Part shown: positions 6,001 to 9,000 of the stretch, piece by piece
Layout: every line of letters starts with the position of its first letter
How positions within the stretch are numbered: position 1 is the stretch's first letter
Origin: a plasmid
Length of the DNA stretch: 40,203 nt
Sequence record: NZ_OW849084.1
Strand: one strand, 5' to 3'
Position numbers: made by a program

Positions 6001-9000
6001 GGCTCGCTCAAACTCGGCCGGGTGCCGGCGACTGGCATCATGCGCACGCTGCAAACGGGAGATAGACCCACCCGGCTGGCCCAGGCGCTGGCCGAATTCG
6101 GGCGGATCGAAAAGACTCTGCACACGTTGACCTATATCGACGACGAGTCCAAGCGCCGCGCCACCCTGACCCAGTTGAACCGAGGCGAAGGCCGGCACAG
6201 CCTGGCCCGCGCCGTGTTCCACGGCAAACGCGGCGAGCTCCGCCAGCGCTACCGCGAAGGCCAGGAAGACCAGCTCGGTGCTCTGGGCCTGGTGGTGAAC
6301 ATCATCGTGCTGTGGAACACCCTCTACATGACGGCGGCCGTGGAACGGCTCAAGCAGCACGGCTATCCAGTGCTGGAAGAGGATTTGGCCCGGCTATCGC
6401 CGCTGATCTACGAGCACATCAACATGCTCGGGCGGTATTCCTTTGCGGTACCGGAAGAAGTTGCGCGCGGCGAGCTGCGGCCACTGCGTAATCCAGACGA
6501 CGACCTGTGATCCCCCTAAACGCTATGAGCAACACCCAAGCTGCTGCTGGATCGGCGGGCACTTCACCGAGCCGAACGAACAGAAAACGCAGCAATCCCC
6601 TGGGTTGGGGCGCAGCAGCGCCTTGCAGTTGCTGCACTCGTAATAGAACTGGCAGGCGTCCGTGGGCATGGTTTCCGGCTTGGCGAAGCCGCAGCGCGGG
6701 CAAGTCAGCACGGACTCAAGGACAATGGCGCTCATCGTGACCTCACTTCTGCACTGTGGAGGGGTATCCCGCGTTCGCGGTCGCCTCAGTCAGTGCCTCG
6801 GGCTGGGCCTTATCGGGATCGTAGGTGACGGTCGCCGTCTTCTGGTCGAAATTGACCTGGACGTCACTCACGCCGGACACCTTCTCCAGCGACTTCTTGA
6901 CCGTGATCGGACAGAGTCCGCACGTCATGTTCTGCACGTCGAGCGTGACGGTTTTCGGGGGAGCCGCCAGCGCCACGAAGGGCAAGGCGAAAAGCACGGC
7001 GATCAGCAGTTTGCGCATGGTTAATCTCCTTCAGTAGAACAGCGGGGCGAGCCACGGCACGGCCAATAGGCCGAGCAGCAGCACGCTGACGATCCAGAAC
7101 ACGAGTCGCTGTCGCACGAGCGTGCGCGGATCGGCGCAGGGTGTACCTGGCGTACAAACCTGTGGCACCAGGTAGAGCTTGCGGAATGCCAATCCCAGGA
7201 ACAGTAGAGTCAACCCGATGAAGAGGGGGCGTAGTGGCTCCATCATGGGGTCACCTCAGAAAACGGAATCTATGGTCACTCCCGTTTTTGCAACACCGAT
7301 TTTGACGACAAGTTGGCTTGCTTGAATCTATCCGGCGTCTGAATGGGATTTTATTCCCGCGCCTCGATGAGTTCCGCGCCTGATGAACCTCCAGAAAATA
7401 TACGGCTTCAATGAGCCTTTCCGTTTTACAGGTTCCTCAACAGGCCGGTGGGCCGTTAGTATCATCAATATCAGTATTCGCAAAACCAGATGAATGATTG
7501 TTTAAACTGGTGTATTTCTGCCTTTATGCTTCGTAAGTTTGCTGTCGCGCCGTCAGTGCCCAGGCTATTCTGGCCAGCTTGTTTGCCAGAGCACAGGTGA
7601 CGACAAAGTTGCTTTTCCGACACAACAACTCCCTGACCCAGTCGGCCAACTTGCCAGACTGGTGTTCCAGTTTTTGTATGAATACCCTGGCACACTGAAC
7701 CAACAAAGTTCGGATCTTTTTGTTGCCCCGCTTGCTAATCCCTAACAATGTCGTCCGACCTCCCGTGCTGTACTGTCGGGGTACCAGCCCTGTTGCCGCC
7801 GCAAAGTCACGGCTGCTGGCGTACTGCTTCCCGTCGCCAATCTCAGTTGAAATAGTACTGGCAGTCAGCGTTCCAACGCAGGGAATACTCAGCAAGCGCT
7901 GTCCAACCTCATCTTCGTCCAACTTTCGTTTCAACTGAGATTCCAGATCTTTAATCTGCTCAACAAGATAGTGATAATGCTGTTGTAATTTCAGCAGTAA
8001 CTGGCTGAGATAAAGAGGCAAACTACTGTCCTCAAGAAGGGTACTCAGTCGACTAATAACGGCAGCACCTCGCGGAACGCTGATACCAAATTCCAGCAGA
8101 AAAGCATGCATCTGATTAGTTGTTTTCACCTTATCCTGAACCAGGGATTCACGGACACGATGCAGAGCTCGCATTGCCTGCTGAGATTCGGTTCTGGGCT
8201 GCACGAAACGCATAGATGGACGTGATGCTGCTTCACAGATAGCTTCAGCATCAACGAAGTCATTTTTGTTGCTTTTAACGAATGGGCGGACAAATTGCGG
8301 TGATATCAGCTTTGGAAAATGCCCTAACTCTGCCAGCTTGCGTGCCATAAAGTGAGAACCGCCACAGGCTTCCATCGCGATGGTTGTTGCCGGGCATGTC
8401 GCCAGAAATTCGATTAGCTTTGGTCGGGTGAATTTTTTACGGTAAACGGCCTTCCCACGATGATCCTGACAATGAATATGGAAAGAGTTCTTACCCAGAT
8501 CGATACCAATAAGCGCAATGTTTTCCATGATGGTTCTCCGAATGAAAGCCTGTCCTCAGCATAGTACTGGGAAGGAGGGAGTGACCATCTCATTAAAAAT
8601 CGTACGGTAAGCCGCTGGCATGGTCTAGCTTCTCGCAAACGATCGTTTTTGAGAGGCTTCAATGAGAATCAGATCCGCGCTAGTGCTGGTATGGCATGTT
8701 GCTTTCTCGAAAACCACTCTCATATTGCACGGCTGAAACAGCCGAGTTTCGAGAACCACGAAAATGCTGTTTCTAGGGGTTGGCAGCTTGCGCAAAGCCG
8801 CGCAGTTGCTGGGTATCGGATCTCTTAACGTGCTTTAATTTCCGAATTCTGAAGCGACCCCATCATGGTCAGAGCGCCCACCCACGTACCGCCGACACCG
8901 AGTGCCAACAGCACCAGTGGCCCGACACAGCACACCGACGCACCGATGGCGGTCAGCGAACTCGCGACCAGCGAGCCTTTCCCGGTGAGTTGCATCCCCA

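Follow-up and report, generated by a model that had tools for sequence, protein, structure and literature searches.

The 40,203-nt plasmid sequence of record NZ_OW849084.1, hereafter called the window, carries a copy of the Tn3-family transposon Tn5563 in which the mer gene merT is split in two, and the question raised by this locus is what lies between the two halves and in which order it arrived. The arrangement almost certainly reflects three successive nested insertions on an IncP-6 plasmid with blaKPC-2, namely those of Tn5563, of the 288-bp element IMU, and of the insertion sequence (IS) IS5075. A reading of the sequence by itself (the original prediction) had proposed the same three levels, a host transposon, a Tn3-derived inverted-repeat miniature element (TIME), and an IS that seeks out inverted repeats (IRs); each level was tested here and held.

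Excision of the insert restores merT

The coordinates of the features are collected in Table 1. When positions 7247 to 8866 were removed, joining 7031-7246 to 8867-9007, an uninterrupted MerT of 118 amino acids (aa) was obtained from the first ATG (...GALTMMEPLRPLF...), and this protein matched the full Pfam MerT model (E = 1.7e-33). The original prediction had placed a 1615-bp unit flanked by a perfect 5-bp duplication of ATCAT between the halves and had stated that its removal repairs the gene; every coordinate was reproduced and the repair was as anticipated. Its division of MerT into a 48-aa N-terminal and a 71-aa C-terminal part stood in its coordinates and in the length of the latter, but the N-terminal part now reads as an open reading frame (ORF) of 60 aa, in which 47 unique MerT codons and the duplicated ATG are followed by 11 codons of read-through. 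The 1615 bp are the sum of a 288-bp element and a 1327-bp IS.

Comparison with uninterrupted copies, which had been suggested as a check, gave the same answer. A 300-bp query made of the joined halves aligned without a break and at 100% identity to the empty site of pRA2 (NC_005909.1; Pseudomonas alcaligenes), the source of the Tn5563 prototype, and to that of more than 100 further plasmids. The two halves are exactly 293 bp apart in 14 records, corresponding to 288 bp plus the 5-bp duplication and hence to IMU alone at the same site. Over 7000-9100, IS5075 included, the window is matched at 100% identity by four plasmids, one of which is NZ_CP087268.1 from Aeromonas veronii of hospital sewage, and five others have the same merT structure at ∼95-96% identity with IS4321 as the IS. 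The empty site, IMU alone, and IMU with either IS5075 or IS4321 are all present in public plasmids, and because these three states exist the order of events is fixed as Tn5563, then the 288-bp element, then the IS.

Table 1. Positions of the features in the window, in order along the sequence.
Feature	Position	Strand	Basis or remark
Tn5563 (variant published as Tn5563c)	1693-9565	+	Perfect 39-bp IRs at 1693-1731 and 9527-9565; AAGGA at 1688-1692 and 9566-9570
merT 3' part, 71 codons plus stop	7031-7246	-	ORF reading, MerT Pfam match
ATCAT target-site duplication (5 bp), left copy	7242-7246		Single copy in the empty site of pRA2
IMU (TIME) left IR, outer 22 nt, GGGGTCACCTCAGAAAACGGAA	7247-7268	+	Contiguous with 8596-8611 in 24 intact copies (at least 99.7% identity)
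IS5075 (IS1111 group, IS110 family), 1327 bp	7269-8595	-	No target duplication; 100% identity to RefSeq-labelled IS5075 copies
IS5075 3' non-coding region, 255 nt, candidate seekRNA region	7269-7523	-	
12-bp subterminal IR	7272-7283		3 bp from the end on the side of the 3' non-coding region; 100% complementary
IS5075 DEDD transposase, 334 aa	7524-8528	-	PF01548 (E = 1.2e-20), PF02371 (E = 4.4e-20); identical copy in L001 is WP_000427614.1 (RefSeq: IS5075 family transposase)
12-bp subterminal IR	8577-8588		7 bp from the transposase-proximal end
IMU left IR, inner 16 nt, AAAATCGTACGGTAAG	8596-8611	+	
IMU core, 212 bp, non-coding	8612-8823	+	
Four TTCTCGAAAAC-like motifs, two inverted pairs	8630-8640, 8645-8655, 8704-8714, 8745-8755		Within the 212-bp core
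IMU right IR, 38 bp, intact	8824-8861	-	Reverse complement GGGGTCGCTTCAGAATTCGGAAATTAAAGCACGTTAAG
ATCAT target-site duplication (5 bp), right copy	8862-8866		Single copy in the empty site of pRA2
merT 5' part	8862-9007	-	ORF starts at 9007, runs on for 11 codons into the IMU right IR, stop at 8825
MobP relaxase	15222-17894		
blaKPC-2	24229-23345	-	Surrounded by IS481-, IS4-, and IS1182-family transposases and a truncated Tn3-family tnpA (30877-33426)
corA	35897-36931		

The 288-bp element matches IMU

Without the IS, the 288 bp (38 + 212 + 38) are 100% identical to positions 2304-2591 of pCHE-A (NC_012006.1), an IncQ plasmid with blaGES-5 from Enterobacter cloacae. These positions hold the element named IMU, for integron mobilization unit (Poirel et al. 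2009). The outer 22 and inner 16 nt of the left IR rejoin as GGGGTCACCTCAGAAAACGGAAAAAATCGTACGGTAAG, which is base for base the same as the intact IR of other copies, and the left IR matches the right one at 28 of 38 positions; the outer arms were also found independently by a repeat finder. When aligned with Tn21/Tn501-type IRs, the IMU repeats match at 27-32 of 38 positions. Only short ORFs (56-59 aa) are present, and the open stretches vary among family members, as judged by stop-to-stop reading rather than by a formal coding test. The unit thus has the marks of a TIME: IRs of ∼38 bp of Tn3-family type (GGGG...TAAG), a length of 50-500 bp with neither a transposase nor any conserved gene, a 5-bp duplication with a matching empty site, and recurrence elsewhere.

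According to PMC3575428 (citing Poirel 2009), IMU is a 288-bp structure resembling a MITE (miniature inverted-repeat transposable element) and was transposed, with target duplication, by a transposase supplied in trans; PMC13367494, likewise citing Poirel 2009, names the ISSod9 transposase as the one that moved an IMU-bounded composite in trans. In Gomi & Yano 2026 (PMC13367494), IMU is classed as a TIME and its IRs are assigned to the Tn21 subgroup; the authors found no similarity of its core to known res sites. The original prediction had spoken of a gene-less, TIME-like unit of 288 bp; the unit proved to be 100% identical to IMU, and because Gomi & Yano class IMU as a TIME, that call was correct. 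These comparisons support the 288-bp unit being the TIME named IMU and not a remnant of a larger mer transposon.

The copy in the window differs in its setting from those in pCHE-A, where blaGES-5 is flanked by two inverted copies that both lack a duplication, whereas here a single copy sits in merT with a clean 5-bp duplication and an interrupted left IR; the 288 bp, the Tn21-type IRs, and the absence of genes are shared. TIME1-TIME4 of Pseudomonas (Szuplewska et al. 2014, PMC4133298) embody the same concept, being gene-less with 38-bp Tn3-family IRs, 5- or 6-bp duplications, and mobilization in trans, but they are of another sequence, measure 262 bp, and have IRs like those of Tn5563a, whereas the IRs of IMU are Tn21-type and unlike the Tn5563 IR of the window.

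IMU recurs with its own target duplications

Whether the TIME recurs elsewhere, a check proposed along with the original prediction, was answered by copies of exactly 288 bp in unrelated contexts with 5-bp duplications of their own, and 197 plasmid records matched IMU. Identical copies lie in an IncA backbone (duplication TCTTG) and in segments of small plasmids (TGGTT, CTATA), and relatives at 95%, 87%, 75%, 72%, and 70% identity occur in plasmids of Aeromonas, Chitinibacter, and Pseudomonas with the duplications AAACA, TATTA, TAATA, and AGGAC. An alignment of nine family sequences spanning 70-100% identity contains no gaps, and every complete member is exactly 288 bp long.

We scanned one genome per species for a parent transposon by using an invariant core pattern, CTCGAAAAN{28,32}GAGTTTCGAGAAC, for which our own frequency estimate predicts 1-2 chance hits (L024 and L031 look like such hits). 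Nearly all of the 20 loci obtained were further 288-bp copies or truncated ones, and none of them contained a parent transposon. No Tn3-family tnpA or tnpR was found beside the atypical hits, where the ORFs encode TrfA, KlcA, TrkH, beta-lactamase, MobA, and IS110 transposases. The repeats and ATCAT were reproduced on re-reading, the core did not turn out to be the end of a larger transposon, and the left IR is indeed interrupted, these being the three points on which the original prediction had staked itself.

Several further observations were made on the family. The 72%-type TIME is identical over its 288 bp in Aromatoleum, Thiomonas, Paraburkholderia, Comamonas, Diaphorobacter, and others, and across several betaproteobacterial genera (L017-L033, genome contigs, Zoogloea among them) identical or nearly identical copies often combine one left flank with varied right flanks, most of them with no 5-bp repeat. 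This flank pattern suggests that the element takes part in composite (TIME-COMP) structures or is a place of frequent exchange; mapping of crossovers by single-nucleotide polymorphisms among the betaproteobacterial copies gave no information, the copies being identical. An 88%-identical relative truncated to columns 100-288 (L010; CP007558.1, pKEC-a3c; 3395-4189) directly follows the gene for a 191-aa serine resolvase that has a Tn21/Tn1721-like res region upstream, an arrangement seen in about a dozen large plasmids among the matches listed, including the IncC/IncN plasmid pKEC-a3c, and it may be a TIME-RES-type hybrid. At positions 947-3463 of a Giesbergeria metagenome-assembled genome (L028), a 54-nt stretch resembling columns 130-183 of the TIME core lies between two IS110-family transposase genes.

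The interrupting element and its target

Over its 1327 bp, the IS in the window is 100% identical to two RefSeq-labelled copies of IS5075 and 99.8-99.9% identical to three others, and these matches support its identification as IS5075. Its transposase gene (tnp) is followed by 255 nt of non-coding sequence and preceded by 67 nt, and subterminal IRs together with a long non-coding region downstream of tnp are the defining features of the IS1111 group (PMC11187229). The original prediction of a 1327-bp IS110-family element with subterminal repeats that cuts the left IR between positions 22 and 23 was borne out in its coordinates, repeats, and DEDD domains. A copy labelled IS4321 (L037, 770-2096) is 93.4% identical, with 87 differences and no gaps; 78 of these fall in the transposase gene (7.8%) and 7 in the 255-nt 3' non-coding region (NCR), of which a 126-nt stretch (NCR positions 33-158) is the same in both elements. 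The NCR is better conserved than the coding sequence, as expected for a functional RNA.

In the left IR of IMU, IS5075 separates base 22 from base 23 with no duplication at its junctions, and the 22 and 16 nt rejoin exactly. The same junctions (...CAGAAAACGGAA-IS-AA(T/A)A...) in the same orientation were observed in five other contexts (L009, L012-L015), two of which are IRs directly beside Tn3-family transposase genes, and the position in IMU is therefore canonical. This is the target choice that had been called the signature of IS4321/IS5075, with the position and orientation found in IRs of the Tn21 family. In that family, the accounts of Partridge & Hall 2003 as cited in PMC11187229 describe 1327-bp elements with 12-bp subterminal IRs at a fixed site in the terminal IRs and no duplication; the window differs in that the targeted IR belongs to a gene-less miniature element and not to a full transposon.

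In pKOX3 p4-IPM, the one of the five IS4321-bearing plasmids in which the junctions were compared, IS4321 (1327 bp) occupies the identical junction of the same merT copy, base for base, and the insertions of the two elements at one IR are therefore secondary and recurrent, having occurred at least twice there. At least five independent hits on IMU-family elements were recognized. Two concern the merT copy (one by IS5075, one by IS4321) and one, by IS4321, the IncA copy; the other two are by IS5075, into a 72%-related TIME of a Citrobacter IncC plasmid and into a relative from Aeromonas hydrophila that is truncated. Among the records of the plasmid collection, a 100%-identical IMU is cut in its left IR in 34 records and is intact (at least 99.7% identity) in 24; none is cut in its right IR, and such a record would have appeared in the ranking.

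Members of the IS1111 group choose their targets by means of a seekRNA made from the NCR downstream of tnp; it has a short complementary segment for either strand of the target, where the stretches matched by the two segments overlap (PMC11187229). The IS5075 NCR contains two target-matching segments, which on the plus strand read TTTCCGTTTT (7418-7427) and CAGAAAA (7392-7398); on the minus strand these become AAAACGGAAA (7427-7418) and, 19 nt further, TTTTCTG (7398-7392; UUUUCUG in RNA). With a hyphen marking the insertion point, the 10-mer and the 7-mer share AAAA in the target and between them span CAGAAAACGGAA-A in the left IR. A match to the 10-mer arose in 79 of 5000 shuffles of the NCR. 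Both segments fall within the NCR positions 33-158 that IS5075 and IS4321 share, and in the predicted fold they are located on opposite sides of an internal loop.

All six IRs that have been hit read CAGAAAACGGAA-AA. The right IR of IMU reads CAGAATTCGGAA-A and is mismatched in both segments (the versions fitting it being AATTCGGAAA and AATTCTG), and the window has two further IRs of Tn21 type, with the readings GAGAAAACGGAC-A and CAGAATTCGGAA-A. All three unhit IRs are thus mismatched, which makes the interrupted left IR the only perfect match on the plasmid. Choice of the left IR was most likely set by a seekRNA from the 3' NCR of IS5075, to judge from this complementarity.

A separate observation concerns a perfect 12-nt direct repeat, GGCTTCAATGAG, found at 7404-7415, between the two target-matching segments of the NCR, and again at 8655-8666 in the TIME core, 44 nt inside the insertion point; by our own estimate ∼0.1 chance matches are expected in the 2.1-kb stretch.

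Proposed course of events and alternative readings

We propose that Tn5563, a Tn3-family transposon with 39-bp IRs, first entered the plasmid backbone with duplication of AAGGA. IMU was then inserted into merT, presumably moved by a transposase of the Tn21 subgroup acting in trans, duplicating ATCAT and splitting MerT after residue 48-49; the transposase of Tn5563 is an unlikely source for this step because the Tn5563 IRs are unrelated. IS5075 followed by site- and orientation-specific recombination into the IMU left IR between bases 22 and 23, with no duplication. These events would have inactivated merT in an operon already devoid of merA, with MerT probably truncated after its first two transmembrane segments. 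The transposase gene of the IS is co-oriented with merT, and transcripts from the mer promoter could read into the IS. With the outer 22 bp of its IR parted from the inner 16 bp, IMU should be immobile unless the IS excises.

Several points weigh against this account or parts of it. The IS is named IS5075 here after RefSeq labels and after the way in which Tn5563c has been described in print. As regards the putative seekRNA, such RNAs are known from other IS1111 members and not from IS5075 (PMC11187229), the predicted fold of the NCR is no more stable than that of shuffled sequences (z = -0.93), and a scan of 7000-9100 with E up to 1 matched no Rfam family.

An alternative to mobile IMU is that the 288-bp unit is not mobile and represents the two ends of a larger transposon (mer or Tn21-type) that an internal deletion in situ brought together. 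Its IRs are Tn21-type, TIMEs in general are thought to derive from such deletions, and one relative is truncated beside a resolvase gene (L010). This origin at the locus nevertheless appears extremely improbable given identical 288-bp copies in unrelated places, each with its own 5-bp duplication, a family that keeps exactly 288 bp from 70% to 100% identity, a merT site that is found both empty and occupied with exactly 293 bp between the halves, the lack of a parent transposon among the 20 genome loci, and the mobilization reported in PMC3575428 and PMC13367494. The boundaries of the element have also been read differently: PMC11265224 describes the insert of Tn5563c/d/e as a 293-bp "unknown insertion region" whose IRs measure 20 bp (GGTCGCTTCAGAATTCGGAA...) and whose direct repeat, CCATCATGG, measures 9 bp, where we find IMU with 38-bp IRs and a 5-bp duplication. 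The sequence CCATCATGG is present on both sides, and at this particular site the assignment of the outermost 2 bp is ambiguous. The empty site, however, already reads CC-ATCAT-GG, and the 9-bp repeat is accidental because the CCCC/GGGG termini of the element meet matching flanks there; other copies keep their GGGG...CCCC termini next to unrelated 5-bp repeats, and duplications of 5 bp are what Tn3-family elements typically produce (PMC13367494, PMC4133298). We regard the 9-bp boundaries as having hardly any chance of being right.

The IS could instead have entered the miniature element elsewhere, after which the 1615-bp composite inserted into merT as one unit, and the 34 records of IS-interrupted IMU in other plasmids show that such composites are common. 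We nevertheless consider this order very unlikely in view of the 14 sister plasmids in which an IMU free of any IS occupies the identical merT site and has the same duplication, and of the presence of IS5075 in some plasmids and IS4321, 87 differences apart, in others within the same merT copy; a split IR, moreover, should not serve as a transposase substrate. In individual plasmids, the uninterrupted merT copies may still have arisen by precise excision of the IS. We conclude that entry of IMU into merT followed by IS5075 best accounts for the observations.

The IMU core and plasmid fusions

The four core motifs listed in Table 1 are 4 of 13 TTCTCGAAAAC-like matches in the whole 40-kb window and lie within the most conserved blocks of the alignment, which include the palindrome TCTCGCAAACGATCGTTTTTGAGA and the inverted pair TTCTCGAAAAC...GTTTCGAGAA. 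The motif is absent from the region upstream of the Tn5563 tnpR (2666-2864). The strict conservation of the 288-bp length together with the conserved half-sites points to a protein-binding architecture, and we tentatively raise the possibility, which we consider rather less probable than its opposite, that TIMEs of the IMU type are more than passive relics and that their core is a spacing-constrained protein-binding site, for example a portable res-like site for a resolvase.

If true, such a res-like site would account for the small plasmids fused into the merT copy through chains of IMU. In Aeromonas taiwanensis p186-KPC (L036; NZ_MH624130.1), three identical direct copies of IMU at 22831-23118, 30761-31048, and 37091-37378 have chained flanks (ATGAT-IMU-TGGTT ... 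TGGTT-IMU-CTATA ... CTATA-IMU-ATGAT). By these flanks, the published 14.8-kb insertion in merT of p186-KPC (PMC6751286) is made up of entire small plasmids (IncQ-type, qnrS2) that IMU copies link to the IncP-6 plasmid, and the 12.9-kb merT insertion of pHD6454-KPC (PMC10229833) probably has the same makeup. These chains could be unresolved cointegrates or products of IMU × IMU recombination, and homologous recombination between identical IMU copies accounts for the fusions equally well.

Relation to published variants

The insert was earlier termed a 286 bp insertion between merP and merT (PMC4785139), and "unknown region" is another label given to it in papers on IncP-6/IncG KPC-2 plasmids. 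In PMC11265224 and PMC9241592, Tn5563d is the form with a 293-bp insertion in merT, Tn5563c is Tn5563d with IS5075, and Tn5563e is Tn5563d with IS4321R; the Tn5563c of IncP-6 (IncG) KPC plasmids described there has the same host transposon, merT site, and IS5075 as the window. The structure is therefore known in all its parts, with IMU from 2009, IS5075/IS4321 targeting from 2003, and Tn5563c from 2022-2024, and it is ordinary for KPC-2 plasmids of this kind. No paper linking the merT insert to IMU was found in a search that most subscription journals lay outside. The main value of the present analysis is one of annotation, in that the "unknown insertion region" of IncP-6/IncG KPC-2 plasmids is corrected to the miniature transposon IMU, an element reported to have moved blaGES-5 with a transposase in trans. 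Recognition of IMU explains the variants Tn5563b/c/d/e, the repeated capture of IS5075/IS4321 at this spot in merT, and the 13-15 kb merT insertions of some Aeromonas plasmids as whole small plasmids joined via IMU; it adds no new biology on transposons or on mercury resistance.

The host transposon and the remainder of the plasmid

Tn5563, of the Tn5044 subgroup of the Tn3 family, was recognized by its identical 39-bp IRs, its 5-bp duplication, and the order tnpR-orf-PIN-tnpA-merP-merT-merR; the transposon is defined in PMC4785139, where its mer locus is called defective. It contains tnpR, a toxin-antitoxin pair of ribbon-helix-helix (RHH) and PIN proteins, tnpA, a GDCCVxC gene, merP, the split merT, and merR; the RefSeq annotation of an identical copy was consulted, and Pfam matches were obtained within it for a resolvase, a Tn3 DDE transposase, HMA (MerP), and MerR. 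The window as a whole resembles a complete IncP-6 (IncG) KPC-2 plasmid.

Two facing Tn21-type 38-bp IRs were also noted at 19148-19520, delimiting 373 bp between the flanks TGGAT and TGGAA. This unit was considered as a second TIME and rejected: its right 240 bp are a widespread Tn1721/Tn6296-type transposon end, and few records contain the unit at full length, only 93 of the more than 5000 matching records covering at least 80% of it. More likely, the ends of two truncated transposons lie back to back here in the KPC region.

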